Notes: generated by a model from the letters alone, not told the origin. Counted from the first letter of the stretch, positions 13,077 to 30,415 are shown. The stretch is DNA of 64,000 nt from Promethearchaeota archaeon (GCA_048940445.1 JBHLON010000014.1:1-64000); one strand, 5' to 3'. Made by a program: numbers and translations.

Positions 13077-14074
13077 TAATAATTCTTAAGATCTAACTTC
13101 AAAAAAAGTCCATTTGAGTTATTAATTAAAAGGTTGAAGTTCCCTTCTGCAGGATAATCATAAGATCTTAAATAATAAATATCTAGACCTGATGCAGGAA
13201 AATCTTCAAATCCTTCAACCTCATCGAGAGCTCGAGGAAAACCAAGATCATTTGCATTGTAATATAATACAAAATATGCGCCCACATCTAGGTTATCATC
13301 GTCATACTTAAAGCGAATATTTCCAATTTTATGAGAAATAATCCCTGAGATATTGGCATCCATGCCATTATGTTGAAAAATATCAATAAATATATCACCC
13401 TCCACAGCAGAAAGAAGTAAAGAAATATTTTGAATAGGTTGTAAGTTATAGGACTTAAAAAATAAATCTCCTTCATCTTGAATGATTCCAGTAATATTGC
13501 CTTTCAAAATACAATATGAAAAATCAAATTGAATATCACCTTTAGAAAGCTTAACTATTATATTTTCCACAGAAATCCCAAACGGAACAATTATCTGAGT
13601 ATCTCCTTGATCTTTAACTCTAATATCAATATCACAAATCGTATTTGCACTGATAAAAATTAAGACTTGAATGTTTTTGATCAAGGATAATACCTCTAAT
13701 AGGCTTATTTCTGGCTTGATTCTCATTGTAAAATTTACACACTCACTTATATTTTGCCAGTTAAAGTCAAAATAGTCTAAATATGACTTTCCTGCTAAAT
13801 CTAAACCAATCATTTCAATATTAATATCTAATTTCGCAAAATAATTAACTGGAGTTGTGATATATTCTAATTTAACATCTCCTATATCAATACCAATGCT
13901 TAGTTCTTCCATATTTGAGGGACTGCTAGGATTATATAAATATTGTAGCCTTTCGCTTATTTTACCTGAAGATGCAAGACTAGTTGAAAGAATAAAAATC
14001 GGTACCGAAAAAATGATGCTGAAGCTAAATATTATTCCTATAATTATATCTCTTATAGCTTTAGTTCGCATCAA
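13073..14074 (-). CDS. Membrane-anchored beta-solenoid protein (DUF4097-like), partner copy 1
   Basis: N-terminal TM; repeated I.I...GDI.I units; clear paralog of 17795-18796 and 28375-29427. Confidence 0.65.
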   Translation of the reverse strand: MMRTKAIRDIIIGIIFSFSIIFSVPIFILSTSLASSGKISERLQYLYNPSSPSNMEELSIGIDIGDVKLEYITTPVNYFAKLDINIEMIGLDLAGKSYLDYFDFNWQNISECVNFTMRIKPEISLLEVLSLIKNIQVLIFISANTICDIDIRVKDQGDTQIIVPFGISVENIIVKLSKGDIQFDFSYCILKGNITGIIQDEGDLFFKSYNLQPIQNISLLLSAVEGDIFIDIFQHNGMDANISGIISHKIGNIRFKYDDDNLDVGAYFVLYYNANDLGFPRALDEVEGFEDFPASGLDIYYLRSYDYPAEGNFNLLINNSNGLFLKLDLKNYY

Positions 14075-14178
14075 TAGTTCTATCCATTAATAAGATAAAG
14101 AAATTAAAATTCAAAGTATGATATAGGGAAGAAAATTATTTAAATCAAACCTTTAGGTAGTAATTAAGTTTAATAATA

Positions 14179-14203
14179 TTCGAATTTTGGGTGAAGTCTC
14201 GAA
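14179..14203. promoter_or_regulatory. Palindromic operator copy
   Basis: TTCGAATTTT-GGGTG-AAGTCTCGAA. Confidence 0.7.
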
Positions 14204-14276
14204 GTCAAATTTTTGATCCACTGTAGAAGACAAACTTTTCTATTAAAGGTAATCAGTTGTTTTGAGGGACAAAATA

Positions 14277-14301
14277 TTCGGACTTTGTGTAAAGTTTCGA
14301 A
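14277..14301. promoter_or_regulatory. Palindromic operator copy
   Basis: TTCGGACTTT-GTGTA-AAGTTTCGAA followed by gctaattctaaaaat. Confidence 0.75.
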
Positions 14302-14419
14302 GCTAATTCTAAAAATCAATTGGTGTGATAAATACTATTTGGCACCAATTTAGTAAATAAAATTGCTGCTATAACCAATTTAAGTAAAAAAACAAACACG
14401 GAAAAAAGGTTTTAAAAAA

Positions 14420-15733
14420 ATGAAATTGAAAACAAAATCAGGCTTAGTCATCGGAATTTTTACAATATTAATGATATTTGGAGTTTTCACGTTGATAATC
14501 GGACCAGTCAATGCTAATTCGCCTACTTTTATTGTATCTCCATCAGGTGGAGATGATACCGCAAACATCCAAGCAGCATTTGATGACGCTATTGCTGCGG
14601 GTCCAGGAAGCACAGTTCAATTAACTTCAGGACAATTTTACACGAACGCTATTTTTGTTGAGGGTTTTTGTGGCACGTTTAAGGGGACAAGTAAAAGTCT
14701 TACCAAAATTGATGTTCTTAAAGGTTTGGATGACACATTAGAAGGAGTAGTTGGTCCTGAGGGCCCATATTTATTTACTTTCGCAGGGGGAGATGTATAC
14801 ATCTCAGATTTAATTTTTGATATTACACCTTATATGCCTGCTGAACCATGGGAGGATCCAGAATACCCATCATACGATTTGGTATCAATTATTTTACTAA
14901 CAGGTGAAACTAATTCCTGGATCGAAAATGTTAAATATATTGGACATGAAGGTACTCTAGTTAATCCATTAGGAGTAGGTTTTAATGTTAGAGTAGGAGT
15001 TGAATATCACTTTGGAACAGGAAATCACATTATTACTATGTGTGATTTTGACTCGATATGGGGAGCCATTTCAGCATATGGATTAATGAATGTGCAAATG
15101 AAAATTTCTTCAAATTCAATTAAAGGAGGAAATTTTGGAGTGATTAATATGGATAATATCAATTCAAAATTTGAGATTAAATATAATGATATTGAGACCA
15201 TGTTTATATATGGTATATGGGTATGGCAAGCAGGTATTATAGTTCCACCCTCCCTCTCGCAGTGGAAAATTACTCACAACACAATAAGGGTTTCTTCTTC
15301 TGCAGATGGTATAGGTTTAATGGACTATTCATCAATCAAATCTCTCGAAGTGGTTGTCTCACATAATAAAATTGTTTTAGATGATACTGAATGGGGTGGA
15401 ATTTGGATAGAAGGGTTGCAGGATGCTTTTATTTCCAATAACATTATTCGAGGTACAGGAGCTTATGGTATTGGGTCTGCTTTTCCCTATAATAATATGA
15501 TACTCGGTAATAATGTTCAAGATGTTGTTGCCTCTTGGGCTCCTATTTTCTTGTATGGGGCAAGTGAATGCGTGGTTGTGGGAGGTTCTACGAAAACCAA
15601 CGTGGCAGATATTGATGGTTATAACAATATAATTGTTGGATGTAATAATATGCAAATTAATTCGTTAGGTCCAGAAATCAAAGAAGCGATGGAACTGAAG
15701 AGAGAAATTATTCAATCTTTCCCTGAATTTTAA
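14420..15733 (+). CDS. Secreted right-handed beta-helix (pectate-lyase-like) protein
   Basis: Signal peptide; DDTANIQAAFD...V.L..G start typical of Pectate_lyase_3-like proteins; ISNN.I..GI repeats. Confidence 0.75.
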   Translation: MKLKTKSGLVIGIFTILMIFGVFTLIIGPVNANSPTFIVSPSGGDDTANIQAAFDDAIAAGPGSTVQLTSGQFYTNAIFVEGFCGTFKGTSKSLTKIDVLKGLDDTLEGVVGPEGPYLFTFAGGDVYISDLIFDITPYMPAEPWEDPEYPSYDLVSIILLTGETNSWIENVKYIGHEGTLVNPLGVGFNVRVGVEYHFGTGNHIITMCDFDSIWGAISAYGLMNVQMKISSNSIKGGNFGVINMDNINSKFEIKYNDIETMFIYGIWVWQAGIIVPPSLSQWKITHNTIRVSSSADGIGLMDYSSIKSLEVVVSHNKIVLDDTEWGGIWIEGLQDAFISNNIIRGTGAYGIGSAFPYNNMILGNNVQDVVASWAPIFLYGASECVVVGGSTKTNVADIDGYNNIIVGCNNMQINSLGPEIKEAMELKREIIQSFPEF

Positions 15734-15757
15734 CAGAAACTATTTTCCTTTCCATAT

Positions 15758-15820
15758 AAAATAGAAAATGGAGGATTAATGACAACTTATTCCTCCGATT
15801 CTATTTCTTTTTTTTTTTTT
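15758..15820 (+). terminator. Conserved GGAGGA/TCCTCC hairpin plus poly-T
   Basis: atagaaaatGGAGGA...TCCTCCgattctat then a long T run. Confidence 0.65.
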
Positions 15821-15964
15821 AATATTCTTTAGGTTAAAATAATGGTTTTGAAAGTTTTAATTATTAGAAGATCAAAAGTTTTAATTACGAAATTGTCTAA
15901 TTTTAACTTTATACTGTTATCGTGAAATCAATTTGATCAATTTTGATTGTTAAAAATAGATTAG

Positions 15965-17746
15965 TTGAGAGTTAAAATGTCATCAAAGAATAAAGGTTCA
16001 ATGAAAAAACCTCCCAAAAAGAAAATTAAAGTATTTAAAAAAAACCGAATTGTAATTTTTGGAATAGTGGGTTGCATAGCGTTAGCAGGAATTATTGGTG
16101 GAATAACAATCTTTTTATATTCACCAGAGGAAAAAATTTTATATATATCCTTTACAGATTTAGCTGTATGTACTTTAGGGATTGACCCACTTATAACTTG
16201 GGTACCAGCTGATTACGAGATAATTAATCAAGTTGCTGAAGGTTTATTTACGCATGATTCAGCTAATCAACAATCCCAAATAATTTATAACCTTGCCATA
16301 AATTATTCAAGGAATGAGGATGCTACAGAGTATATTTTTGAACTGAGACAAGGTGTTCAATTCCATGATGGAACACCATTTAATGCACCAGCGGTTCAAT
16401 GGAATATTGATAGAATATACACTTTAATTGCAAACGGTAAAATGCACTATACTTCAAAACAATTCTGGTTATTTTCCGATGGGACATGGATTATAAATCA
16501 TACTGAAATCATTAATGATTATAATATAAAGTTCATATTAAACAAGCCCTATATCCCCCTTACTGCATTATTAGCCTCTGTTAATGCATTCATGGTCTCA
16601 CCTACTTCAACTTCTCAAAATGATTTTATTTCACCAACAGAAATTTTAATCGGAACTGGTCCTTTTTTATTTGGTGTTTGGAATAAAAATCATAGCCTAG
16701 TACTCTCTTCCAATCCAAATTATTGGGGTGGTAAACCTCAGATTGATAAATTGATATTCAAGATTTATCCAACTCCAGAAGATAAATTCGAAGCATTACT
16801 TTCTGGAGAACTTTCAATGTTAAGTGGTTACAACGAATTACATAGTCATGCTCATTATTTGGATTCCCTCGGAATTTATGATAATGATGTCCTAGACACT
16901 TTTATAAACAATCCTGATGTAATAGTAGAAGAAGACCCTTCAGCGCCATTTTTTGATTACTTACTAATGAACAACGAATTAATTAATGTAACTATGAGAA
17001 AAGCAATATCTTATGCTTGTAATTACTCTGCTTATATAGATAAGTGGTTAAGTGGTCATGGAATAAGACTTAGATCTCCTATTCCAGAAGGTGTTTTATA
17101 CTCAAACACAACTAGTATTGAAGTTCCTTATTATAATATTTCAATAGCACGACAAACTCTAAAAGATGTTAATTGGAGCGGAGTTGCCGGGGCTTTGACT
17201 GCTGATGATAACGTTTCTGCAGGTAATCAATGGGAAAAATTAGTAGATGATGGAAAACCTTTAGAGACATATAATTTTACATACATAAGTGGTATGTTAA
17301 ATGGGATTGTCTTTTTAAATATAGTAACAGAAGATCTAAAGCAAATTGGAGTAAAGGTAGAAGGCGTTAGCATTACACTTGGAGAATATAATGAAATCTT
17401 TCACGAAAACTTAAATAGGGTTGAACTTTCACATATGGGTTATATTACGAGATTTAATGATCCTTGCAGTATTGTGAATATTTTATGTTCAAATAAAGCT
17501 TTAGATTTAAATTATTGTCAGGTTAATGATAATTCAACCCAAGATTTAATTGAACTTGCTCTAGCAGAAACTAATGAGGCTATAAGAGAACATTATTACT
17601 ATCAAATTCAAAGACGTTTAATTGAAAAAATATTCCCAATGTGTTACCTTTTTGAAAGAAATTTTTTTAGGATTTATAGATCCAATTTAAAAGGATTTGA
17701 GATTAACTATTTTAATCCTGTATACAAAGATATTCACTTTATCTAA
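15965..17746 (+). CDS. Family-5 solute-binding protein, copy 2
   Basis: LRQGVQFHDGTPFNA, GTGPF, RKAISYA; paralog of copies 1 and 3. Confidence 0.9.
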   Translation: MRVKMSSKNKGSMKKPPKKKIKVFKKNRIVIFGIVGCIALAGIIGGITIFLYSPEEKILYISFTDLAVCTLGIDPLITWVPADYEIINQVAEGLFTHDSANQQSQIIYNLAINYSRNEDATEYIFELRQGVQFHDGTPFNAPAVQWNIDRIYTLIANGKMHYTSKQFWLFSDGTWIINHTEIINDYNIKFILNKPYIPLTALLASVNAFMVSPTSTSQNDFISPTEILIGTGPFLFGVWNKNHSLVLSSNPNYWGGKPQIDKLIFKIYPTPEDKFEALLSGELSMLSGYNELHSHAHYLDSLGIYDNDVLDTFINNPDVIVEEDPSAPFFDYLLMNNELINVTMRKAISYACNYSAYIDKWLSGHGIRLRSPIPEGVLYSNTTSIEVPYYNISIARQTLKDVNWSGVAGALTADDNVSAGNQWEKLVDDGKPLETYNFTYISGMLNGIVFLNIVTEDLKQIGVKVEGVSITLGEYNEIFHENLNRVELSHMGYITRFNDPCSIVNILCSNKALDLNYCQVNDNSTQDLIELALAETNEAIREHYYYQIQRRLIEKIFPMCYLFERNFFRIYRSNLKGFEINYFNPVYKDIHFI

Positions 17747-17794
17747 CATATCTTAATAATCTTTCTATAAAATCAAATAAAATTAGAGCATTCT

Positions 17795-18796
17795 CTATGT
17801 GTTTTGGAGTTCTAACTCTTCATACATACCAATTGGAAAATTAAACAACAAATTATAATTATATTGTGCGGGATAATCATCGGAAGTCAAATGATAGACA
17901 TCTGTCCCATTTACTGTTGTCACATAATATGCAAAACCTACAAGTTCAGCAATTTTTTGATTAATAGCATAATCATCTGGGTGTACATATAATATAAAAT
18001 ATGCTCCAACTTCATCTGTATTGTCTATATAAGTTAATCGATAATTACCAGTAATTATTGTGATATTACCAATTATGTTAGCATTTGTAGCTTTAGTTTG
18101 AGAGATTTCAATATGGATATTACCCTTTTTAGTATAAAGCGTCCATGTACTATTTTGCGTGTATTTTATATCATAGTTTTTCATCTCAAGATCTCCTCTG
18201 TCATTGATAATAGCACTAATATTACCTTCTAAGAGACAGTAGAAAAAGTTATATTTGATATTACCTCTTGAAACATTAGCTTCTATATTCCCCACTGAAA
18301 CACCATATGGAACAGATATACGAGCACCTCCTTTAATGCTAACTCTGATATCAATATCATAAATTACATCTGCTTTTAGAGCTATATTTACATCAATACT
18401 CTTTATTAGGGATAGAATTTTAACTTTGTCTATACCTGTTTTTAAATTCATGGTGAAGTATAAAAGACTACTTGTATTCTGCCAAGCAATATTGAAATAA
18501 TCTAAATATGATTTTCCAGCTAAACTTTGGCCATTCATTTCAATACTTATATCTATTTTCGCATAATAACTAACTGGGTCAGTTATATATTCTATTTCAA
18601 CTTCCCCTATATCAATATCAATATTTAATCCATTCGAAAATGTAGGGGTGCTAGGATTATAATAGAACTGAATTGATTTATAAATGTTGCCAAAAGATGA
18701 GAGAGCTGTTGAAATAATAACGATAGGTATAGAAAAAATGATACTCAAACAAAATATAATCAATATAATAACAGTTTTAATAGCTTTATATGCCAT
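17795..18796 (-). CDS. Membrane-anchored beta-solenoid protein, partner copy 2
   Basis: Shares YNPS.P, IDIG.V..EYIT.PV.Y.AK.DI.IEM.G..LAGKSYLDYF and VP.G.SV.NI with copy 1. Confidence 0.65.
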   Translation of the reverse strand: MAYKAIKTVIILIIFCLSIIFSIPIVIISTALSSFGNIYKSIQFYYNPSTPTFSNGLNIDIDIGEVEIEYITDPVSYYAKIDISIEMNGQSLAGKSYLDYFNIAWQNTSSLLYFTMNLKTGIDKVKILSLIKSIDVNIALKADVIYDIDIRVSIKGGARISVPYGVSVGNIEANVSRGNIKYNFFYCLLEGNISAIINDRGDLEMKNYDIKYTQNSTWTLYTKKGNIHIEISQTKATNANIIGNITIITGNYRLTYIDNTDEVGAYFILYVHPDDYAINQKIAELVGFAYYVTTVNGTDVYHLTSDDYPAQYNYNLLFNFPIGMYEELELQNT

Positions 18797-19031
18797 CTTT
18801 TAATTTATACAAGGAGTATTAAATTTTTCCTAAGTAATTTATATAAAAGGATTAAATTTAAATTAATTCCTCGAAATAACAAGTTAGAAGTTAAAGTTTA
18901 AGAGCGAAATTTTTTTATATATCCAATATGAGCTAATTATTAAAAAAATTTCATGTTTGTTTAGGTGATTCCACATAATTTTCTTTATTACATTTGATCC
19001 TTTAGAACGTTTTTTTTCGTCTATTGCAATA

Positions 19032-19985
19032 GTGGTATTAATTTTTTGTTGTATATTTTACATTTCTCAGGGGCGTAAAAAAGAGATCCTACATGAAAAA
19101 ATATTGATGTATAGTTTTGCAAGTTTTTGGCTTAGTATTTCTTTAGCAAGAATATTTTATTATTTTTCTGATATATTTTTAGAAGGGACTTATTCAGGTG
19201 ATTTAAGCACACTTATTCTAACATATAATGTACTTAATTACATTTTTCTTTACTTTTATCTATATTCTCATATTTATATCTTAATTAGTATAATTATATT
19301 AAGTATTATGTTTATATGGTTTTCAATAAAGTCAAAAAAAGAATTCCAGTTAGTATCATCAGTAGTAGCCATTGGATTTACTATAGTTTTGATTGGATGG
19401 GTTTTTGAGACAATAGCATTAAAGCAATTAAATCTTATATCTCCAGTATTACCTTCAATTTTTATAATAGTGGGAACTATAACCGCAACAATTCCTCTAA
19501 TTGCAAATATTGAGTTCTTTTCAAGCAAATTAATTAATTGGTTAGTTTTAATTTCAATTATTCTGATCTTACTATTTTTTAGTTTAACCATTTTCACCAA
19601 TCTCCCACTAGTTCTTTTGAGTCAAATAATAATTTTAATTTCAACCTCTGTTTTAATTGTGGTGATCATTTATGTGACAATTTACATAATTAAGAGAACT
19701 AAAGTGTCAGAAGTTCAAGAAATAGTTCCAAAGGAGGAGCTTAAAGACTTTTTGAAGACTTTTATGAAACCCACTACTATTACTATCGAGGAAATTCAAT
19801 TATATAAAGAGAAAGGATTATGTTTAGTGTGCAAAAGTAAAGTTACACGGTTAAATTATATTTGTCCCAAATGCAATGCATTATATTGTTTAAAATGCTC
19901 AAGAGCATTAACTAATTTAGAAAATGGTTGCTGGGTCTGCGAGACCCCCTTTGATGAATCCAAACCTATGAAAATTTCTAAATAA
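19032..19985 (+). CDS. Multi-pass membrane protein with C-terminal C4C4 RING-like domain
   Basis: About 7 hydrophobic segments; C-x2-C-x10-C-x2-C-x4-C-x2-C-x10-C-x2-C at 19821-19940. The frame is open from 18969, so the start may be earlier. Confidence 0.75.
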   Translation: MVLIFCCIFYISQGRKKEILHEKILMYSFASFWLSISLARIFYYFSDIFLEGTYSGDLSTLILTYNVLNYIFLYFYLYSHIYILISIIILSIMFIWFSIKSKKEFQLVSSVVAIGFTIVLIGWVFETIALKQLNLISPVLPSIFIIVGTITATIPLIANIEFFSSKLINWLVLISIILILLFFSLTIFTNLPLVLLSQIIILISTSVLIVVIIYVTIYIIKRTKVSEVQEIVPKEELKDFLKTFMKPTTITIEEIQLYKEKGLCLVCKSKVTRLNYICPKCNALYCLKCSRALTNLENGCWVCETPFDESKPMKISK

Positions 19986-20010
19986 AATAATTAATAGAAA
20001 GGTAAAGTTT

Positions 20011-20220
20011 ATGATTGAATTATTGATATTACTGCTTATAATATTTTTGGCAATTCCTTATATTATATTATCTTTTATAACATTCTGGGTATATAAAGAT
20101 GCAAAAAAAAGAGATATGAATGTATTTGCTTGGATTTTGGTGATTTGGTTAATCCCCTTCTTTATTGGTTTAGTCATTTATTTAAAAATTAGAATACAAT
20201 ATTCTGTCACTAGGTTTTAA
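20011..20220 (+). CDS. Small two-TM membrane protein (PLDc_N-like)
   Basis: WVYKDAKKR.M...W...I..IP..GL.IYL pattern. Confidence 0.65.
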   Translation: MIELLILLLIIFLAIPYIILSFITFWVYKDAKKRDMNVFAWILVIWLIPFFIGLVIYLKIRIQYSVTRF

Positions 20221-20503
20221 TATTGTTATATTTTCCAAATTTCTTTCAAAGTCAACTTATTTATATTCTTTAGAATCCTGTTCAATAGAAAATTTTAAAA
20301 TTTTATCATTCGGAGGGCGACATTCTGGAATTTTTTTTGCTTCAATGTTCAAAAATCTTAACTCTTGACTCTTATCATTATGGACTTTGTTTTTTTTACT
20401 CAGCTCAATACACTCAAAATTTCAGTTAAAAATATACTTATATTAATTAATGTTAATATCTATAATAAAATTAATTACAATTATGTAAGGAATATTAATT
20501 TCG

Positions 20504-21520
20504 ATGTTAAAACCTCCTCAAATTTTATTTACCGGAGAAAATGGAGTTGGTAAAACCACTATCTTGAATTTATTTCCAGAAGATATTATTTTAGAATTAG
20601 ATGATAACTTTAATGAAATTTTTCAAAAGCAAGTTAATATTACTGGAACCAGAGGTATAGAACATTGTATTTTAAGAGAAATTGATTTAAGAGAATTAGT
20701 AGACAATTTTTTTTCTTTTCAAAAACTTTTACATACTATTGATATCATTCTCATTGTTACTGATTCAACTGAGCGAAATGTTAAATATACTTATGATTTA
20801 TTTTCTGAATTGAAATACAAATTACCTAAAATTGATTTTTACATAATTGCTAATTTTCAAGACAGAAAGTCAATCTCAATGCCCATAGAAAAAATGGAAT
20901 ATACATTAAAAGAGAAAGTTTTTGGATATTCAGCGATCCAAGAGGATTCAAAAGATTGTATAACTGAAATTATTAAAGAGATTTTAGAAATTTCTATTAT
21001 TAAAAAGCAAGGAAAAAAGCCTTCATTTGATAAAATTGATTACAATATAATTTGGTCAGACATAGAAGAAGCAAGATTGTTGGAAAAGAAAGGAGATCAT
21101 TATACAGCATCAAAAAAATTCTCAATTGCTGGATCTAAATTTAAAATACTAAATTCAAATGAAGAAAAAGAAGAATTCAAAGCATTATACAATTTGTGTA
21201 AAGCTTGGGAGTGTATAGAATTAGCTGAAGAATATGAAAATATTTCGAAGTTTGCTGAAGCTGTGAAATTTTTTGATCAAGCAATTGAATCTCTTTCTGA
21301 TGAGAAATTGAAATTATTAGTATCAGCTAATTTAATGCATTGTGAAGCTTTAAAATTAGGAATGGAGTCAGATATATCAGATCAACTGCATATTAAAGAA
21401 AGATTATATATAGAAATAATCGATTTAATTAACAAAGCAGTTAATTTATATAAAAGAGGAGGTTTTGAAAAAGAAGCAGAGTTTGCTTTAACTACCTTGA
21501 ATAAATTAAAGAGCCTTTAA
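20504..21520 (+). CDS. Divergent small (Arf/Rab-like) GTPase fused to helical repeat domain
   Basis: P-loop GENGVGKT, VTDS, G4-like ANFQD, G5-like YSA; no DxxG; TPR-like C-half. Confidence 0.7.
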   Translation: MLKPPQILFTGENGVGKTTILNLFPEDIILELDDNFNEIFQKQVNITGTRGIEHCILREIDLRELVDNFFSFQKLLHTIDIILIVTDSTERNVKYTYDLFSELKYKLPKIDFYIIANFQDRKSISMPIEKMEYTLKEKVFGYSAIQEDSKDCITEIIKEILEISIIKKQGKKPSFDKIDYNIIWSDIEEARLLEKKGDHYTASKKFSIAGSKFKILNSNEEKEEFKALYNLCKAWECIELAEEYENISKFAEAVKFFDQAIESLSDEKLKLLVSANLMHCEALKLGMESDISDQLHIKERLYIEIIDLINKAVNLYKRGGFEKEAEFALTTLNKLKSL

Positions 21521-21573
21521 TTGAGTAAAATTAAAATTTTAGTAAAATATCTTAAAACATTACAAGGATAAAA

Positions 21574-22068
21574 TTGACATTATTCGAAAAAGATTTTCTA
21601 TTTCCAGTATACATAGATAAAAATACTTTAAATCATATTGATGAATTATGCAAAAATTCTGATAGAGAAATTTTTGGCTATTTAATTGGTTTAATTTTAA
21701 AATGGAGAAAGAATAAATATATTGTTATAAAAGAACAGATTTATATTAAAAATACAGTTAGAAGTAATAAATTTAATACATCTCAAATTGAAGGAACTGC
21801 AGGAAAATATGAACAGGAATTTCAAAAGTTGAAATATGATATGGGGAACGAGAATTTACAAGTTATAGGATGGTGGCATTCTCATATCAATCTAGGTTGC
21901 TTCTTATCATTAACTGACATTCACACACAAGAATATTTTTTTCCCGAATCTTACCAAGTTGCTTTAGTAGTTGATCCCATTCGAGAGGAATTCAAATTTT
22001 TTACATTAGATAAAGGCTCAAAAAAGAAATACAAAACGCTAAGTTATGCTATTATATCTTCAACTTAA
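21574..22068 (+). CDS. JAB/MPN+ (JAMM) deubiquitinase
   Basis: REIFGYLIG ... VIGWWHSH....FLS.TD, ALVVDP: intact JAMM motif. Confidence 0.92.
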   Translation: MTLFEKDFLFPVYIDKNTLNHIDELCKNSDREIFGYLIGLILKWRKNKYIVIKEQIYIKNTVRSNKFNTSQIEGTAGKYEQEFQKLKYDMGNENLQVIGWWHSHINLGCFLSLTDIHTQEYFFPESYQVALVVDPIREEFKFFTLDKGSKKKYKTLSYAIISST

Positions 22069-22085
22069 CAATTTAGTTTATATCT

Positions 22086-22967
22086 ATGAGTAAGAAAGAA
22101 AATAAAGGAATTAAAGTGATTGGAACTGATTCCATAGATTCAGATAGATTCGATCGCCAAAAGAGAATTATTGGTTGGGATCAAACTACTATTTCTAATG
22201 CGACAATCATGGTAATTGGTGCTGGAGCTACTGGAAATGAAGTTGTAAAAAACTTAGCTTTAGTTGGAGTTGGAAAAATATTTTTAATTGATTTTGATTT
22301 CATTCAAACTTCAAATTTAAGTCGTTGTGTGTTGTTTAACCCTAAAGCAGCAAAAGATAGAGAATACAAAGCAGATGTTATTAAAGATGTATGCAGAGAC
22401 TTAAATCCTGATGTTGAGGTTGTTTCAATTAAAAAAGACTTAAATTCAATAGATAAAACCCTTTATAGCAAGTGTAATGTAATATGCTCTTGCTTAGACA
22501 ATCTTGAAGCACGAATTGAAGCTAACAATTATGCATACTATAATCGAATTCCTTTTGTTGATTCTGGGATTGACGAATTTTTTGGTTCCGTTCAAGCAGT
22601 ATATTCAGAAGTTGAAAATTCAGCTTGTTTGCAATGTGGTATATCAGAAAAAGATTTGGATTTAATGTGGAAAAAATTTTCTTGTACTGGAGAGGAAATA
22701 AAGTCTGAAGAAGGTGAAACCACAAGAAAAATAGCAACAATCGTAACAACTACTTCAATAATAAGCGGTATTCAATCTCAGCAGGTTCTAAAATTTTTAC
22801 TTGGAATGAATTATTATAAGGAAGATAAGAAATGGAATCCTTATATTGGAGAACCCTTAGTTGGAAAACAATTAATTTATAATGGTCTAACAAACAGTTT
22901 CAGCATTATTGATAAACTAAAAGATCCAAAGTGTTGGACTTGCTCATATAAAAAATTTAAGATTTAA
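22086..22967 (+). CDS. Ubiquitin-activating E1 enzyme (ThiF/UBA-like)
   Basis: RFDRQ, GAGATG, D.DFI..SNLSR, CLDN.EAR, CLQC, catalytic-position FSCT, C-terminal CWTC. Confidence 0.92.
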   Translation: MSKKENKGIKVIGTDSIDSDRFDRQKRIIGWDQTTISNATIMVIGAGATGNEVVKNLALVGVGKIFLIDFDFIQTSNLSRCVLFNPKAAKDREYKADVIKDVCRDLNPDVEVVSIKKDLNSIDKTLYSKCNVICSCLDNLEARIEANNYAYYNRIPFVDSGIDEFFGSVQAVYSEVENSACLQCGISEKDLDLMWKKFSCTGEEIKSEEGETTRKIATIVTTTSIISGIQSQQVLKFLLGMNYYKEDKKWNPYIGEPLVGKQLIYNGLTNSFSIIDKLKDPKCWTCSYKKFKI

Positions 22968-22984
22968 ATTAAGAGGACATATAG

Positions 22985-23503
22985 ATGCCAGAATTACCTT
23001 TTGAGATATGGAAAGAAAGAGTAAATAATGAGATAAAGATTCTAAGTACCATTAACCTTGTTGAAAATAAATCTATAGCATGGTATGATAATAGTGTAGA
23101 ATTATGGATTAATTTAAGTGCCTTTGGATTTATTAAAGGAGAAAGTGAAGGAGGTATCAATGTAAAGCCTCAGATGAATCACCGAATTCTCATTAAAATA
23201 AATAGATCCTTTCCATATCCTGGAGGGATTGATTTTGCTTGGTATTCAAATATATTTCATCCAAATATTCATCCCATTGAGTTAGAAGGATTGAAAAGGA
23301 TAGGGACCGGTTATATATGTTTAAATATTTTAAGGCAATGGACAAAATTATCAGATTTGGAAACTACAGTAAAGTCTCTAGAAAAATTAGTAGAGAATCC
23401 CAATCCAGAGGACCCCCTCCAATATGATATTTGTATCGAAGCAGCTGAATTTTTTAAAAGAAATTCAATCCAAAAACTTAAAAAAATTTACAACGTGAAA
23501 TAA
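22985..23503 (+). CDS. Ubiquitin-conjugating E2 enzyme
   Basis: FPYP, IFHPNI, GYICLNIL..W, L..PNPEDP. Confidence 0.92.
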   Translation: MPELPFEIWKERVNNEIKILSTINLVENKSIAWYDNSVELWINLSAFGFIKGESEGGINVKPQMNHRILIKINRSFPYPGGIDFAWYSNIFHPNIHPIELEGLKRIGTGYICLNILRQWTKLSDLETTVKSLEKLVENPNPEDPLQYDICIEAAEFFKRNSIQKLKKIYNVK

Positions 23504-23529
23504 GATGAGCCTATATATGTTAAATAAGA

Positions 23530-23784
23530 TTAACCTCCTATAACTTTTGTCCATAACATTAAAATATCATACTCTTTTAGCCCAAATTTGTGTATTGCCT
23601 CCTTAATTGATATCGTATTTGGCAATTCCTTTTCTTTGTACACTAAAGCATAAGAACGTTGTTCTGAGCTTATAAACCCCATATGTTTGACAACAATTTC
23701 TATAATCCGTTCTATTATATGGTGTTCCTTTACATCTAACTTTATTCTTTTGCCCGTTCTGGTATCTTCTATTGATAATTTCAT
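23530..23784 (-). CDS. Ubiquitin-like protein, mature C-terminal GG
   Basis: 84 aa, beta-grasp-like pattern, ends VIGG-stop, convergent with E2. Confidence 0.88.
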   Translation of the reverse strand: MKLSIEDTRTGKRIKLDVKEHHIIERIIEIVVKHMGFISSEQRSYALVYKEKELPNTISIKEAIHKFGLKEYDILMLWTKVIGG

Positions 23785-23848
23785 TTTTATTCTGATTTTT
23801 CTTTTAAAGACAAATAAATTTATTCAACTAATAATTTTTAGTTTTGAG

Positions 23849-23873
23849 TTCGAAACTTTTCACAAAGTTCGAA
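23849..23873. promoter_or_regulatory. Palindromic operator copy upstream of the ubiquitin gene
   Basis: Minus strand reads TTCGAACTTT-GTGAA-AAGTTTCGAA then ctcaaaactaaaaat. Confidence 0.75.
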
Positions 23874-23880
23874 TTAGTTA

Positions 23881-25176
23881 TTATTCTTGTTCTTTCAACT
23901 TTTTATTAATTTCATCCAATATCTTATATTTTGGAAAATCTTTTAGAATTGAAGTTAAAATGGTTTTTTCTCTTTTAATTCTGTCATAATCCTCTAATTT
24001 TAGGTTAATTATATTTTGAAAAGCTAAACCCTTAAACTTATCTACTAAATCATCTGAAATTGTTTCTTTTTGATATTTCCCAAATAAGAAATTGATGTAA
24101 TCAGGTAGAAATTTCTTTAGAGGTGATTTTATATTTCTATCAAATAGTTTATCAGAAATGTCATTTAAAATATTGTCTAATAAATCTACGGTTTGTGAAT
24201 TTCTTTCTTCTTTAGAGATGTCAGGTTGTAATCTTTTGAGATAACTAAACTTTAGAATGTTCTCATCTATAATTAAATGCAGCATTTTATCAATTTTGTC
24301 ATCTTCTCGAAAACAATATACCATCTCATCATTAAATCTTAAATTGAAAAATTTTGAACCATATAAATTCTCTTCAGTAATCTTTTGCACACAAAAAGTA
24401 AGTGTAGCTAGCTTAATATTATATTTAAGAGCGAAATTTTCTTGTGAAATATATTCTGGATATCGACTTGGATGATTTATAGAAAGAAACAATAATATTT
24501 TATAAAAATCTTCTTTTGATGGGAGTATATTCTCAATGACGCTATAATTAAAATGATTAATTAAATCAAGAAGTAAAATTTCTATTAGGTTATCTTCGAT
24601 ATCCTGCTCCTTAAGAAACTTTCTGGCATTTTCTTTGATACTTTCTATCTTATCTATCTCTTCTTCTAAAATTGATTGATAATCTAATTGATATTTTTTC
24701 AGCATTTTATTATATCGTTCCTCACCGACCTTAGTGATTCTGTATTCCATATTTTCGCTATCGACAAAACCTTTTTTCATTAAAAGATTTAAATATTTTG
24801 ATAGAGAATTATGATTGAGAGAAAGAGGCTTTTCAATAAAATCTGACCACTTTAAATAGTCGTTATTAAATAACATCCACAAGATGATATGAACATAATT
24901 TCTCTTGTTCAAAATGATCTCTGGAGGATATCTTAATTTTCTCTCAAATGAGTCTTTAAATTTCAAATCTATATATCTTTTCTTACCTTCAGTAGTAGCT
25001 ACATAAACTCCTTTACTCTTTTTCCCAACATAGCCGTTTGAAATTAATAATTTCATATATTTAGACAATGTAGCTAGGCTGATTTCTAGTGGCTTATCTA
25101 AAAAGACAGACCAATTACACTCCTCATTATTATTTAGCATCCAGAGGATTATATATTCAAAATCTTTCTTCTCCAT
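23881..25176 (-). CDS. Tandem winged-HTH transcriptional regulator
   Basis: Two repeats of IILWML.NN....WS.F..KPL.....LSKY...L...G.V......Y..T..G; the true start is probably upstream of 25176. Confidence 0.75.
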   Translation of the reverse strand: MEKKDFEYIILWMLNNNEECNWSVFLDKPLEISLATLSKYMKLLISNGYVGKKSKGVYVATTEGKKRYIDLKFKDSFERKLRYPPEIILNKRNYVHIILWMLFNNDYLKWSDFIEKPLSLNHNSLSKYLNLLMKKGFVDSENMEYRITKVGEERYNKMLKKYQLDYQSILEEEIDKIESIKENARKFLKEQDIEDNLIEILLLDLINHFNYSVIENILPSKEDFYKILLFLSINHPSRYPEYISQENFALKYNIKLATLTFCVQKITEENLYGSKFFNLRFNDEMVYCFREDDKIDKMLHLIIDENILKFSYLKRLQPDISKEERNSQTVDLLDNILNDISDKLFDRNIKSPLKKFLPDYINFLFGKYQKETISDDLVDKFKGLAFQNIINLKLEDYDRIKREKTILTSILKDFPKYKILDEINKKLKEQE

Positions 25177-25385
25177 GCCTGATGGGTTAATTAAATCTTC
25201 TGGAGGATAATTGATTTTTTTAGCACAGATTTTATTAATACACCTATTATTATTTCTTTATTTTAATTTTCAATTAAATTTTGAGTAATCTCGCTCATAT
25301 ATAAGATATAACAAATATGTTTAAAAAATTTCATTTAAAAATAAAAATCCTCATATTTAATATTTTTTATTTAAATAACTCAAAC

Positions 25386-25410
25386 TTCGGATTATATGCA
25401 AAATTCCGAA
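25386..25410. promoter_or_regulatory. Palindromic operator copy (degenerate)
   Basis: TTCGGATTAT-ATGCA-AAATTCCGAA. Confidence 0.55.
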
Positions 25411-25439
25411 CTGTTTCTTGGAATAATAAGTGGAAGATA

Positions 25440-25464
25440 TTCTAAGTTCGCTAAAGGTTTCGAA
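25440..25464. promoter_or_regulatory. Palindromic operator copy
   Basis: TTCTAAGTTC-GCTAA-AGGTTTCGAA then cttaaatctaaaaat. Confidence 0.7.
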
Positions 25465-25555
25465 CTTAAATCTAAAAATAAAGATTAAGCATAATAACCA
25501 ATTGACACAAATTTGCCAAAAAAGAAAAATAAATAACAAAAAAGGATGAAAAAAA

Positions 25556-26326
25556 ATGAATAGAAATAACCTATCTAAATTGATTCTCTTAACCTTTCTG
25601 ATGTTCGCTATTTTCAGTTTTATACCAGTAGTTGCAGCAAGCTCAGGTAATGTAACCAAAAGACCATTAGATGATTGGTTAGATCCGAATTACGCTGCTT
25701 TCCCGTGGGGCGAAAAAAATTGGGCTTTTTATGACTTTTGGAGCCCTTATTCTGGTTTAGTGACGAAGATGGGGTTACCTTGGCCTTTGGCTGGCTTCTA
25801 CCCATTCGTTAACGACATGATATACGAAAATAGTTTAGTAATAGGAGATACTATAATTGATGGTAATATTAAAGAACGAGCATTAAACGATGGAACTGCT
25901 TTAATAACCCTGCAATTAAATGTGAAAAACGCTCCATGTTCAGTGTATGATTACTTCGATTTTATTCTTTACTGTCTTGGGGCTGCTCCTTACCCTCAAG
26001 CTGTATTGGGAGATGGAATTGATGGGTATATCGATTATACCGTGTTAGTTAAATTTTATATCCCTGAACCTGGAGCAGAGTTACCAAATGTATTTGATAT
26101 GTGGTATTATTATGTCTCGATTAATATTCACGGTATTGGTTATGGAACATTAACAGAACGTGCAGTTGAGCTCGGTTTTGCCGAAACTGCTGGTGCACCC
26201 GGAATGGTAGAACTTCATCACATAGCCCTTTTTAAGCCTGATTTCAAAGAAACTCATCCTAAATATGATCCATTTTATGGTGATTTATGGCCAGTTGACT
26301 CCGTTGAAGTTTATGAATTGAGTTAG
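25556..26326 (+). CDS. Secreted hypothetical protein (paralog of 29618-30415)
   Basis: Signal peptide; KRPLDDW, NVKNAP and K.DFK..HP.Y shared with the paralog. Confidence 0.8.
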   Translation: MNRNNLSKLILLTFLMFAIFSFIPVVAASSGNVTKRPLDDWLDPNYAAFPWGEKNWAFYDFWSPYSGLVTKMGLPWPLAGFYPFVNDMIYENSLVIGDTIIDGNIKERALNDGTALITLQLNVKNAPCSVYDYFDFILYCLGAAPYPQAVLGDGIDGYIDYTVLVKFYIPEPGAELPNVFDMWYYYVSINIHGIGYGTLTERAVELGFAETAGAPGMVELHHIALFKPDFKETHPKYDPFYGDLWPVDSVEVYELS

Positions 26327-26380
26327 AAGCAGATTAATGGAGAGAAATACCAAGTGAGGGTTGAAATTTTTAAATAATAA

Positions 26381-26468
26381 TATAGAACAAGGAGGAAAAA
26401 GATTAGAATAATGGCTTCTCGAATGACCACATCCAAACCGCTATTCCTCCATTCTTTTTTTTTTTTTT
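26381..26468 (+). terminator. Conserved GGAGGA/TCCTCC hairpin plus poly-T
   Basis: tatagaacaaGGAGGA...ttCCTCCattct then a long T run. Confidence 0.6.
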
Positions 26469-26603
26469 AAAATATTCTTTTTAATTTTTGCTTCTTTTTA
26501 GATTCTGATAAAATTATATCTTAAATCTGATTATCATAGACAGAAAAGTTTAAAAATAGAATCAACCAATCTTCAAGTTATACATAAATGTGAATTCTAT
26601 TAA

Positions 26604-28313
26604 ATGATTAAAATGATAGAAAAAGCTTCTTCTAAAAAAAGATTTCCTAATATCAAAGAATTCAAGAAAATAATCATAGTTGGAGGGTCAATAATAAGCT
26701 TAGCGATAGTTGGGATTATAAGTGGAATTATTATTATGGGAGAGATCCCGCAAGGAGGTATTCTTAAAGTAGGTATAACTAAACCTATTGGAGAAATTGA
26801 CCCTCTTATGTATAGCTTTTCTTCAGAAGAAATAGTAATTAATCATGTTACCGAGACGTTATTTGATAATATTTATATAGGTGGTAAATCTCAAACTCTT
26901 CCTCATCTAGCATTAGATGGAAATTGGAGTTCGGACTACCTAAATTTCACATGCACACTTAGAAAGAATGTCATGTTCCATGACGGAACGCCATTTAATG
27001 CTGCAGCTGTTAAATGGAACTTCGATAGAATTACTCAAATTATCGATTCATCACTTCTATCTTGGTATTTGTGGGGTTACCTATTTTTTTTACCAGATGG
27101 GCGCTGGATTGTAAATAAAACTCTAGTCTTAGATTCCCATATTGTAAAATTTGTTTTAAATGATGTTTTTGTACCTTTTCGAGAATTATTAACTCATAGT
27201 ACTACAAGTATTTTATCACCATCATCAACCCCTGCGGATAAACCCCTAAATACACACATTGATAATTTAGTTGGAACCGGTCCTTTTATATATGATGGTT
27301 ATGAACCTAATGTCAATATGTCATTATCTCCTAATCAGGATTACTGGGGAACAAAACCTGAAATTGATAAGGTAATTTTAAAGTTTTATTCTCCAACTAA
27401 TGATACTAATCGTATTAACATTTTATGGAATGCGCTTTTAGCAGGAGAAATTCATATAGTAGACCGGGACTTTATTAAATTTTTAATAAGGTTCTATCCA
27501 GAAAGATCTATCGAACTCCTTAAAGGTGTTGCAGGAATTACAGTTCAACAAAAGCCTACTATAAGCTATTTTTATGTTTTTTTTTATCCTAAACTTATTA
27601 ATAGTACAATGAGAAAGGCAATATCTTATGCAATTAACTATTCTAATATCCTTGAAATAGTTCCTAACTCTATAACAGCCAGATCCCCAATTCCAGAAGG
27701 TATCCCTTACTCTAACATTACTGGTATTGACATTCCTTATTATAACATTTCAAAAGCAAGACAAATGTTAATTGACGAAGGTTGGCCTGGAACAGCGGGT
27801 TTAACGGCAAATGACAATATTACAGCAGGAAACGAATGGGAACAATTAGTAACTAATGGATTCCCTCTTGCTATATATAATTTATCTTATTATCCAGGGA
27901 ATCCATACAATGAATTACCACCAATTCCTTTTCCAGAAAATCTTAAACAACTTGGAGTCAATGTATCATGTCAACCAATTTGGAGTGGTGCTCCGTCTCA
28001 ACTTGAAACATTAATGTGGATGTATGACTATAACGATCCACACACTGGTATGCTTGATTATCATTCAAAATGGACTTTATGGACCGACTTTAATGTTAGT
28101 GTATTAGATGAATTGATAGAAGAAGGAATTAAGGAGACAAATCCTGTTTTAAGAGAAGCGATATACTATAATATTCAAAAACTTATAATCGAGGAAATTT
28201 GTCCTGTTATATTTACTCTCTCTCCACGAAATTTAGATATATATGCATCAAATTTAATAGGTTGGCAAATTTATCCATTCAAAATAGTATTTAAAACAGT
28301 TTATTTCGTCTAA
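26604..28313 (+). CDS. Family-5 solute-binding protein, copy 3
   Basis: FHDGTPFNAAAVKWNFDR, GTGPF, RKAISYA, LTANDNITAGNEWE. Confidence 0.9.
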   Translation: MIKMIEKASSKKRFPNIKEFKKIIIVGGSIISLAIVGIISGIIIMGEIPQGGILKVGITKPIGEIDPLMYSFSSEEIVINHVTETLFDNIYIGGKSQTLPHLALDGNWSSDYLNFTCTLRKNVMFHDGTPFNAAAVKWNFDRITQIIDSSLLSWYLWGYLFFLPDGRWIVNKTLVLDSHIVKFVLNDVFVPFRELLTHSTTSILSPSSTPADKPLNTHIDNLVGTGPFIYDGYEPNVNMSLSPNQDYWGTKPEIDKVILKFYSPTNDTNRINILWNALLAGEIHIVDRDFIKFLIRFYPERSIELLKGVAGITVQQKPTISYFYVFFYPKLINSTMRKAISYAINYSNILEIVPNSITARSPIPEGIPYSNITGIDIPYYNISKARQMLIDEGWPGTAGLTANDNITAGNEWEQLVTNGFPLAIYNLSYYPGNPYNELPPIPFPENLKQLGVNVSCQPIWSGAPSQLETLMWMYDYNDPHTGMLDYHSKWTLWTDFNVSVLDELIEEGIKETNPVLREAIYYNIQKLIIEEICPVIFTLSPRNLDIYASNLIGWQIYPFKIVFKTVYFV

Positions 28314-28374
28314 TATATGCCATGCACATTGGTCTAAAAAACCATAAACAAATTAAAAAATTTTTAACATGATT

Positions 28375-29427
28375 TTATTCAAATAATGAGGGTATACTTG
28401 TCAGATCCATGTCAAAATCTCCCTCTAGGATTTCAAACCTGATATTGTAATAGTACTTAACAATGTTTGCTAGTAAATCATCTGATGTAAAATAAAAAAT
28501 GCCCTCATATGTAGTTTGTGCAATACGATTGAAATCAAAACCATCTACAAGCGTACATATGAGACCAGGAACCTGCAATAAACAAGTAGGAAATCCACTT
28601 TTATCCATGAATTCTCCTCCGTAGGGAATTTCAAGCATTGCACCAATATCAGCGCTGTTATCCTTATAGTAAATAAAAATATCTCCTTTATTAACTTTGA
28701 ATATCCCTGTTGTGTTAGCACCAATATCTCTATATTGAAAAACTTCAATGTCTATATTACCCTCTCTAGTGTTTATGTCCCAACTACTATTTTGAGCATA
28801 TTGCACATCATTTGACTTGAAAATCAAATTTCCATTATTTATAGTTCCAATTATGTTTCCTTGAATTGAACAGTGCTCAAAATTGTACAAAATATTTCCA
28901 TTGGAGACGTTTGTTAATAAATCTCTAAAGGAAACGCCATAAGGAATAGTTATTTCAAAGTTTCCTTTAGTTAGATTGGTAATAATATCAAATACAATAT
29001 CTTTTCTAATATTTACAACAATACTTATTTCTTTCTTTAACCAATATAGTGGATTAAACCAATCATCCGATATAATTTTCAATTTAAGATTTATCTGAGA
29101 ACTTGAGTTGTTCCATGAAATGTTCAAATAATCATCAAATGATTTACCAACTAAGTTTTCTCCAATTAAAGCAATATTTACGTCTATTAATACAAAATAA
29201 TCAACTGGTGGATTAATATATCTTATTTCTATATTACCCTCATCAGCATCAATATATAACTTTTCAATAGATGATGGTGAGCTTGGTTCATATATAAAAG
29301 AACGAGATTCGTTAATATGGTCATACAATGAGGATCTGAATGAAAGTAATTGGATTGGAATAATTATCATAAGAGAACCCCATAAAATAACCAATATAAC
29401 TACTCCAACTATACTTTTTTTCGCCAT
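28375..29427 (-). CDS. Membrane-anchored beta-solenoid protein, partner copy 3
   Basis: YEPSSPS, PV.YF..IDVNI...G..L.GKS..DY, IPYGVS, GNI repeats. Confidence 0.65.
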   Translation of the reverse strand: MAKKSIVGVVILVILWGSLMIIIPIQLLSFRSSLYDHINESRSFIYEPSSPSSIEKLYIDADEGNIEIRYINPPVDYFVLIDVNIALIGENLVGKSFDDYLNISWNNSSSQINLKLKIISDDWFNPLYWLKKEISIVVNIRKDIVFDIITNLTKGNFEITIPYGVSFRDLLTNVSNGNILYNFEHCSIQGNIIGTINNGNLIFKSNDVQYAQNSSWDINTREGNIDIEVFQYRDIGANTTGIFKVNKGDIFIYYKDNSADIGAMLEIPYGGEFMDKSGFPTCLLQVPGLICTLVDGFDFNRIAQTTYEGIFYFTSDDLLANIVKYYYNIRFEILEGDFDMDLTSIPSLFE

Positions 29428-29523
29428 CTTTGATTCTATTGATTATCAACTATAAAAGATCTACAATCATTTAGATAAGATAAGGGTTTATTTAAATTGA
29501 TTCTTCTTTGGCAAAATCCAAAA

Positions 29524-29548
29524 TTCGAACTTTGCGCGAAGTTTCAAA
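29524..29548. promoter_or_regulatory. Palindromic operator copy
   Basis: TTCGAACTTT-GCGCG-AAGTTTCAAA then gtcaaatctaaaaat. Confidence 0.75.
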
Positions 29549-29617
29549 GTCAAATCTAAAAATAAGATTTTAGACCAAATATCAATCACAGCAATTTAAA
29601 AAAAAAGTGAAATCTAA

Positions 29618-30415
29618 ATGAACAGAAAATATAGAGGACTTTTATCAATAACATGTTTAGCAATTTTTGGGATTTTAATCATGGGCGCTATACCAGCAGT
29701 ACAGGGAGCCTCTTCGATCAAAAGACCACTTGATGATTGGTTTTATGATGTCTTTGGTTACGATCTCAATCCCAACGTTGGTGGGTGGGTTGACGGATAT
29801 CAAGTAAGACCTCAAGGCATAGATTATAATATGACCACTGATGAGTGGATCTATCAACCGATTTGGGAATGTACATATGATGGCTTTATCCTTGATAGAG
29901 ACATGCATGATGGTCGACATATGATTACAGTTAATATAAACGTCAAAAATGCTCCAGTTATCGTTGCTCCACCTTTTGGGAGTGGAGGATATTATTGGGT
30001 TTTCCAAGGTTTTATGGATTATAAATATCAATATAATTTCATAATAGACATAGAGGTTTGGGCTGGCTGGCTGATAATGTTGGGCTTTGATGATGATGGC
30101 TTCGACGAATATGGAAATATCCTGTTACCTAGATGGGACCTACCCATGGTTTATGGCTCAGTCTTCGGATTTGAATTCATATCAGTGCATTTTCATGGTG
30201 ATGGAGAAGGAACAATAGTTAACTATTGGGATGAGTCCTGGGTGGGAAATGGAGATCGTATTTGGGAACCAGGTGAATCAGCAAAATTGAGTACTAATAT
30301 GGTTGGACTTGTAAAGGATGATTTCAAACTAGATCATCCCAATTATTGGCCCTCAGAGTATTCTGGATTGCCTTGGAGTGTATTATGGGCAGTTGACTTC
30401 GTAAAATTACATTAA
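29618..30415 (+). CDS. Secreted hypothetical protein (paralog of 25556-26326)
   Basis: Signal peptide; KRPLDDW, INVKNAP, KDDFKLDHPNY, WAVDFV. Confidence 0.8.
   Translation: MNRKYRGLLSITCLAIFGILIMGAIPAVQGASSIKRPLDDWFYDVFGYDLNPNVGGWVDGYQVRPQGIDYNMTTDEWIYQPIWECTYDGFILDRDMHDGRHMITVNINVKNAPVIVAPPFGSGGYYWVFQGFMDYKYQYNFIIDIEVWAGWLIMLGFDDDGFDEYGNILLPRWDLPMVYGSVFGFEFISVHFHGDGEGTIVNYWDESWVGNGDRIWEPGESAKLSTNMVGLVKDDFKLDHPNYWPSEYSGLPWSVLWAVDFVKLH

Follow-up and report, generated by a model that had tools for sequence, protein, structure and literature searches.

A conserved, probable operator–promoter module with a candidate two-winged-helix regulator joins a ubiquitin-like gene to exported-protein genes in an Asgard archaeon

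The window considered here, 64,000 nucleotides from a Promethearchaeota archaeon (GCA_048940445.1 JBHLON010000014.1:1-64000), contains a ubiquitin-like gene on the minus strand (23530..23784; 84 aa), a minus-strand gene for a 431-aa protein with two winged helix-turn-helix (wHTH) units followed by a helical domain (23881..25176), and three plus-strand genes for exported proteins. The latter encode a right-handed β-helix protein with an N-terminal signal or anchor (14420..15733; 437 aa) and two proteins with a signal peptide and no Pfam family (25556..26326, 256 aa; 29618..30415, 265 aa). Copies of a 25-bp operator precede the ubiquitin-like gene and each of the exported-protein genes. The original prediction was that the tandem-wHTH protein binds this site, regulates its own gene and coordinates the supply of the ubiquitin-like modifier with that of secreted or surface proteins. 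As judged from the sequences compared below, the element is part of a conserved, lineage-specific operator–promoter module with a well-supported candidate regulator. The kind of system, an archaeal wHTH regulator acting with a semi-palindromic operator, is already known; the interest lies in the organism and in the link between a ubiquitin-like gene and exported proteins. Asgard archaea are the closest archaeal relatives of eukaryotes and, to our knowledge, almost nothing is known about gene-specific control of transcription in them.

Four copies of the operator are strong. That at 14277-14301 (plus strand, 38 bits), together with a TATA-like tail at 14302-14316, forms the predicted promoter module of the β-helix gene and is present in nine species. 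Its distal neighbour at 14179..14203 (plus strand, 32 bits) has a decayed tail, is conserved in the related genome G017 and lies in the spacer between a minus-strand gene for a 333-aa membrane protein and the β-helix gene. The copy at 23849-23873 (minus strand, 38 bits; tail at 23834-23848) precedes the ubiquitin-like gene and sits 8 bp past the stop codon of the wHTH gene. The fourth, at 29524-29548 (plus strand, 39 bits; tail at 29549-29563), belongs to the predicted promoter module of the gene for the 265-aa protein. Two further copies, separated by 54 bp, occupy the divergent spacer of the wHTH gene. One of these, at 25440-25464 (plus strand, 16.4 bits), has a decayed left arm and the complete conserved tail (25465-25479) and forms the predicted promoter module of the gene for the 256-aa protein. 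The other, at 25386..25410 (14.5 bits, assigned to neither strand), is a near-perfect palindrome whose right arm is the variant of a sister genus; it is identical in G017 and is a candidate autoregulatory site. All six copies are intergenic. Their placement around the wHTH gene, the gene starts at 14420, 25556, 29618 and (minus strand) 23784, and the oriented tail common to the copies at 14277, 23849, 25440 and 29524 are as the original prediction had described them.

A search of the window with the pattern as first proposed, allowing up to three mismatches, returned the four strong copies (14179, 14277, 23849 on the minus strand and 29524) against an expectation of 0.00 from 100 shuffles. Across the whole assembly (3.64 Mb in 139 contigs, 93% complete) the same four were the only matches at no more than two mismatches, and the reversed pattern gave none. 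A 25-bp position weight matrix (PWM), made from 14 non-redundant sites of several species, scored the four at 32-39 bits in a scan of the 3.64 Mb; the next-best position in the genome reached 19.7 bits, which is background level, the maximum for the reversed PWM being 18.9 bits. On score alone the copies at 25440 and 25386, which rank sixth and eighth in the genome, are also at background level. Thus, of the six copies originally claimed, four stand as strong sites and two as weak variants.

The bare core, TTCG-N17-CGAA, occurs at 18 loci genome-wide, four of them inside a 15-kb stretch. Neither the 9-mer half-site nor the 12-mer tail word (22 occurrences against 21) is commoner in the genome than its reversed control, and it follows that only the full module is informative. 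A tail-word match with a partial left arm on another contig (C22:802) was dismissed as a chance match; it falls within a coding gene. The occurrence of the operator is real and far beyond chance, and the motif is not equally frequent elsewhere, its strong copies being confined to 15 kb of the 3.64 Mb. It does join the ubiquitin-like gene to the exported-protein genes, but the word regulon, as first used for it, overstates its extent in the genome; this is a local cluster.

The element is oriented. It is a 25-bp pseudo-palindrome with outer TTCG...CGAA words and inner CTT and AAG words, in which the outer hexamers are self-complementary and the inner words are shifted by one base. The first three positions of the spacer read G-Y-G, in 20, 21 and 20, respectively, of 25 distinct sites. 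In four of the six copies an A/T-rich, TATA-like tail of about 12 bases, holding a single C, starts 2-3 bp past the 25-mer. Start codons lie at varying distances past the end of the 25-mer: that of the ubiquitin-like gene comes after 64 bp, and those of the 265-aa, 256-aa and β-helix proteins after 69, 91 and 119 bp, respectively, a spread that fits an element working at the level of the promoter rather than of translation. The 25 distinct sites contain no compensated substitution between the arms: pair 2/24 is broken in ten of them, 3/23 in seven and 10/16 in ten, and positions 7/19 never pair. The lack of compensation points to selection on a double-stranded sequence that is read by protein, and the pair counts rule out a hairpin or terminator.

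In six genomes (G000, G017, G054, G045, G018 and G021), the regulators of which are 62-94% identical, the 25-mer and its tail lie between the wHTH stop codon and the start of the ubiquitin-like gene with identical arms. A diverged operator occupies the same place, with the same tail, in G043 (regulator identity 52%) and in G229 and G174 of the sister genus. We also surveyed the taxonomic family, in which 30 ubiquitin-like loci were examined. The core and a tail-like box are present at all six loci with a wHTH neighbour (G000, G017, G282, G291, G269 and G043, the tail of G043 having drifted under the strict tail pattern). The core is present at none of the 24 loci without such a neighbour, which are mostly linked to E1 and E2 genes and at which the best PWM score is below zero. 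When the two sets are combined, the operator is found at 12/12 wHTH-linked ubiquitin-like loci, in two genera, against 0/24 unlinked loci. The expectation that the site would be conserved before ubiquitin orthologues therefore holds for the wHTH-linked loci and fails for all of the others.

Upstream of the β-helix gene the module is kept in nine species with scrambled flanks. In alignments anchored on this site the major-allele frequency is 0.88 over the site and 0.93 over the tail, compared with 0.61 over the 30 bp upstream. Overall, the values are 0.88-0.92 for the site, 0.82-0.93 for the tail and 0.61-0.67 for the upstream sequence (nine species, proteins 52-94% identical).

The 431-aa protein matches Pfam HTH_45 over two stretches (47.6 bits, cut-off 25.5) and HTH_34 (29.8 bits, cut-off 27). 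An AlphaFold2 model derived from 27 family members (mean predicted local distance difference test score 85, predicted template-modelling score 0.56) has winged helices at residues ~6-72 and 94-162, with H-H-H-E-E units at 6-60 and 94-147, then a long helix and a helical domain that includes a third wing-like hairpin. An N-Y-P-P-E lead-in stands before each winged-helix unit, which indicates that the unit has been duplicated in tandem. Foldseek gave weak matches at the level of single domains, to the multi-winged-helix proteins RPC62 and TFIIIC, to SarS, and to PadR/LmrR, NadR, HxlR and Sso10a; no whole-chain match was obtained at E <= 0.001. A profile search of the PDB returned nothing significant and the ESM Atlas only sub-threshold leads, to a WhiP-like HTH_45 cluster (score 0.89). 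For the first unit, the codons of the conserved lead-in are found in frame ahead of the ATG at 25176 (25177-25218, minus strand). No ATG, GTG or TTG precedes this stretch in this genome, and a TTG is available in G018; the true start of the regulator may lie upstream of 25176 or be non-canonical.

The protein belongs, as the short form, to a lineage-specific family whose other members have 630-1015 aa and carry C-terminal TPR arrays. It is 39-49% identical to these paralogues over residues 1-392, which comprise the two wHTH units and the helical domain. Pfam finds no TPR match in the 431-aa protein and many in the paralogues, and the short form lacks the presumed sensor part of the family. Six members are encoded in this genome, namely the short form and five others. 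Within a 200-genome sample of the phylum (E <= 1e-10) one taxonomic family has the N-terminal module in 30 of the 40 genomes sampled, and it was found in none of 160 genomes from 26 other families. In the family tree the short forms are sister to a clade of 900-aa proteins, and a clade linked to kinase genes is placed elsewhere. The recognition helices are alike across the paralogues; being conserved family-wide, they were uninformative as a means of deciding which member reads the operator. Within the conserved locus the wHTH protein is the sole candidate, with no other DNA-binding protein encoded there. A conserved 69-aa gene product was considered as an alternative DNA binder and rejected, since it is a peptide with two transmembrane (TM) segments.

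The operator is also found in other settings. An additional 35-bit site with a tail (L058, G017:C17 8804-8828) lies ~290 bp upstream of the membrane RING operon of G017, and has been lost from the corresponding spacer here (window 18797-19031). In G174 an operator precedes the gene for a 232-aa membrane protein. A near-identical 25-mer with a different tail is placed ~141-144 bp upstream of a distant, TPR-bearing paralogue of 824 aa in at least eight species (G004, G008, G011, G013, G014, G016, G024 and G048), where it faces a divergent histidine-kinase/response-regulator operon for HATPase_c (246 aa) and Response_reg (279 aa) proteins. In G008 this site (L056, G008:C21 3253-3277) is the only one of its kind in the genome. 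The arrangement suggests a separate small regulon of the same regulator family. In addition, every member of the clade of 890-910-aa paralogues (L029-L041) has, ~100 bp upstream, a compound element built of the same half-site words and then a canonical TATA-like box; this is probably an autoregulatory operator.

Clades that are not sisters thus use the same type of motif, which would make the motif a trait of the family, in agreement with the conservation of the recognition helices. Both the kinase-linked and the 900-aa clade are missing from this genome, and the short form would accordingly be the natural reader here. Neither the short form nor the ubiquitin-like gene is present in two genomes, G044 and G046, where leftover sites are decaying at the syntenic spot, with no intact targets. 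These relic sites and their tails (L064 in G044 and L066 in G046) lie between an AlaX-like gene and a gene for a membrane β-helix acyltransferase-like protein, and all that one of them fronts is a remnant of 53 codons with a signal peptide. Four species share a 22.7-bit relative of the motif, located where a 421-aa open frame begins (L079, G012:C59 647-671, and in G018, G021 and G054).

We consider it probable that the operator is fused to the core promoter and bound by the adjacent 431-aa protein, and that it acts from upstream, with activation favoured. That the tandem-wHTH protein is the binder, as first proposed, was supported by every comparative test run. A single regulator chain would bind the 25-mer with one winged helix on each half-site. 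The presence of two winged-helix units in one chain would account for the site being oriented rather than truly palindromic. The operator would serve as an upstream activating site, helping TBP and TFB to load on a weak core promoter. Upstream activation seems the likeliest mode because the site ends where the TFB-recognition element (BRE) would begin and is followed by an unusual, conserved TATA-like tail. In this manner the regulator could switch on together the sole ubiquitin-like gene of this genome, the exported β-helix protein and the two exported paralogues.

Several points weigh against this reading. Firstly, the genomes compared are related and do not constitute independent samples, and the comparison of 12/12 with 0/24 loci is given as counts with no formal test. 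Secondly, G047 (92% complete) carries a perfect site before its β-helix gene and the short-form regulator was not found in it; the ubiquitin-like gene of this genome is linked to E1, E2 and RING genes and is without an operator. Thirdly, paralogues may cross-bind, given that their recognition helices are similar and that the 25-bp motif type occurs in non-sister clades. Finally, the sign of the regulation depends wholly on the position of the site and on the premise that the tail represents a weak TATA box.

With respect to the sign, we lean slightly towards activation. According to the literature, activators in archaea act from a position upstream of BRE/TATA, at promoters whose TATA or BRE is deviant, and repressors occupy sites inside the promoter or downstream from it (PMC5937170). 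The centre of the operator is ~45-50 bp upstream of the expected transcription start, and the tail is non-canonical when set against the boxes of the T-T-T-A-A-A-T-A type that belong to the neighbouring minus-strand genes and to the regulator paralogues. When 8-mers upstream of 1646 crudely called genes were used to derive a promoter consensus, the words recovered were all T-rich and probably belong to the terminators of preceding genes; the ten tRNA genes found were too few for the purpose.

The same protein on the same sites might nevertheless be a repressor, held against or over the BRE to block TFB and TBP and released on a signal. We regard this as a genuine possibility, if a lesser one. 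The 3' half-site ends 2-3 bp before the tail, and the BRE would overlap it should the first bases of the tail be the TATA element. Many archaeal wHTH regulators occlude BRE/TATA (PMC5937170), and the site directly past the wHTH stop codon could be a roadblock to read-through. However, the operator centre would be at the position usual for an activator, the non-canonical tail is conserved next to genes that use canonical boxes, and there is no site over or downstream of the expected start, all of which favour activation.

The weak sites in the divergent spacer probably give some feedback on the gene of the 431-aa protein itself. The autoregulation that had been predicted is partly supported by the sequences: a site lies near the wHTH promoter in four of the nine species read. 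In this genome and in G017 a gap of 8 bp separates the weak palindrome at 25386 from a canonical TATA-like box (25370-25377) oriented towards the wHTH gene, and in G054 and G021 a strong site lies upstream of the regulator promoter. None was seen at this promoter in the other five, G018, G045, G043, G229 and G174. Autoregulation is therefore plausible but not general. The copies at 14179 and 29524 are ~34 and ~27 bp, respectively, from canonical boxes (14136-14145 and 29487-29497) that face the minus-strand genes for membrane proteins of 333 and 350 aa, and these divergent genes may for that reason be co-regulated.

It is unlikely, in our view, that the operators are genuine sites read by another wHTH-TPR member or by an unrelated factor, with the short-form gene a co-regulated passenger. 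The five further paralogues in the genome, with their similar recognition helices, lend this idea some substance, as do the use of the same motif type by a distant paralogue clade and the perfect site of G047. It does not account well for the association of the site with the short form at ubiquitin-like loci (12/12 against 0/24), and the kinase-linked and 900-aa clades are absent from this genome. Moreover, where the short form and the ubiquitin-like gene are missing, in G044 and G046, the sites are decaying relics.

We give very little credence to the notion that the element is not a factor site at all but a promoter cassette copied with duplicated genes, or an RNA or DNA hairpin acting as a terminator or stability element, for although the locus holds triplicated solute-binding and membrane-protein cassettes, two of the targets are paralogous, the arms allow a 10-bp stem to be drawn and the wHTH gene has one copy in its 3' region, the genes downstream are unrelated (ubiquitin-like, β-helix, the 256/265-aa family, the RING operon of G017, the 232-aa protein of G174 and the kinase operon), the flanks are non-homologous, compensatory changes are nil with one stem position never paired, no T-run follows the element, and it has been kept far longer than neutral intergenic DNA.

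The proposed activation from upstream has counterparts. Ptr2 of Methanocaldococcus jannaschii is an archaeal activator whose binding site is immediately upstream of BRE/TATA. Another such activator is TFB-RF1 (PF1088) of Pyrococcus furiosus (PMC5937170). The system described here resembles these two in having a semi-palindromic site that would abut a core promoter, perhaps one with a non-consensus element, and a very small local set of predicted targets that includes the neighbourhood of the regulator, with exported or transport-type targets. It differs in that the candidate regulator has tandem winged helices and a large helical domain in place of an Lrp-type or small HTH dimer, in that the targets include a ubiquitin-like modifier, and in that activation is here inferred. 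Searches of Pfam, PDB sequences and folds gave no homology of the regulator to TFB-RF1 or Lrp/Ptr2, and the resemblance would be one of function only.

In architecture the protein recalls SarS of Staphylococcus aureus (PDB 1p4x; Foldseek probability 0.99 with a low TM-score), where two winged-helix units in one chain can replace a dimer on a two-part site. Unlike SarS, which belongs to another domain of life and has no detectable sequence relationship with it, the protein described here has an extra 260-aa helical domain and TPR-bearing paralogues. Each of its units is above the HTH_45 cut-off and resembles the PadR/LmrR and Sso10a folds; HTH_45, PadR and Sso10a proteins are, however, single-unit dimerizers, whereas here the unit and its N-Y-P-P-E lead-in are duplicated in tandem.

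The third comparison is with archaeal ubiquitin operons, such as that of Caldiarchaeum subterraneum, which encodes ubiquitin, E1, E2, RING and Rpn11 proteins (PMC5654768, PMC6043591). The locus in the window shares with these the grouping of E1 (ThiF), E2 (UQ_con), JAB, RING-like and ubiquitin-like genes. In contrast to those operons, the RING-like protein is a multi-pass membrane protein, and the ubiquitin-like gene has its own predicted regulated promoter, of a type shared with exported-protein genes. A full-text search of the literature found no regulator or operator described for archaeal ubiquitin operons or Asgard ubiquitin-like loci, and no published description of the operator element was found.

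The plus-strand RING/E1/E2 operon at 19032..23503, which has no operator upstream in this genome, encodes the RING-like protein, the 69-aa two-TM peptide, a P-loop/TPR protein, JAB, E1 and E2. Pfam cut-offs are exceeded by ThiF (156.7 bits), UQ_con (40.5 bits) and JAB (42.5 bits), and the RING finger match is sub-threshold. The 84-aa ubiquitin-like protein ends directly in GG at its C-terminus, and its best PDB sequence matches, though weak, are all to ubiquitin or NEDD8. A eukaryote-like ubiquitin set, with a GG-ending ubiquitin-like protein, E1, E2, JAB and a RING-like protein, is thus gathered in one locus. The genome also encodes an ESCRT-II EAP30 protein (above the Pfam cut-off), which, taken with the ubiquitin-like system, fits an Asgard origin. 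As for the other targets, inspection identifies an N-terminal signal sequence in all three. The β-helix protein is marginal in Pfam (NosD 23.8 bits, cut-off 23.6; Beta_helix 24.2 bits, under the cut-off of 25.9), the 256-aa and 265-aa proteins are paralogues, and the ESM Atlas returned nothing for the 256-aa protein.

The result is a small, completely defined predicted circuit made up of one candidate regulator, a 40-bp module and four promoters as its targets, testable with synthetic DNA and with no need for culture. It provides a first DNA motif for a lineage-specific, expanded family of two-winged-helix and TPR regulators. The ubiquitin-like gene, placed under its own predicted regulated promoter alongside exported proteins, offers a lead to the targets of the membrane-RING system. 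One may go further and suppose that the circuit couples ubiquitin-like tagging to the cell envelope, the supply of modifier being raised together with exported proteins, as an Asgard precursor of systems in which membrane E3 ligases govern the quality control or turnover of surface and secretory proteins, with a logic like that of endoplasmic-reticulum-associated degradation or of MARCH ligases. The setting that prompts this idea consists of the multi-pass membrane RING-like ligase, the P-loop/TPR protein and the pairs of membrane-anchored solute-binding and solenoid proteins; we regard it as a long shot. Without the TPR sensor of its family, the short-form regulator might in turn be subject to control by the tagging system.

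Some further features of the locus were noted. The RING-like membrane protein, the 69-aa peptide, the P-loop/TPR protein, the ubiquitin-like gene and the regulator form its conserved core. JAB, E1 and E2 genes lie between the P-loop/TPR gene and the ubiquitin-like gene (window 21574-23503) in just G000, G017, G282 and G291 (L059, L060, L061, L083 and L084); most relatives have the wHTH-linked gene as a second ubiquitin-like copy, with E1 and E2 staying beside another one elsewhere. The presumed 5' leader of the β-helix gene contains a second conserved dyad (14342-14369) in seven species of the genus. It has 10-base arms with 8-11 bases between them and shows no compensatory changes, and it may be a further protein site or an RNA stem. 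Finally, a triplicated cassette (11295-18796 and 26604-29427) pairs a TM-anchored family-5 solute-binding protein with a convergent gene for a membrane-anchored protein of 333-350 aa. No ABC permease lies near these cassettes, and the same pairs flank the locus in both genera.

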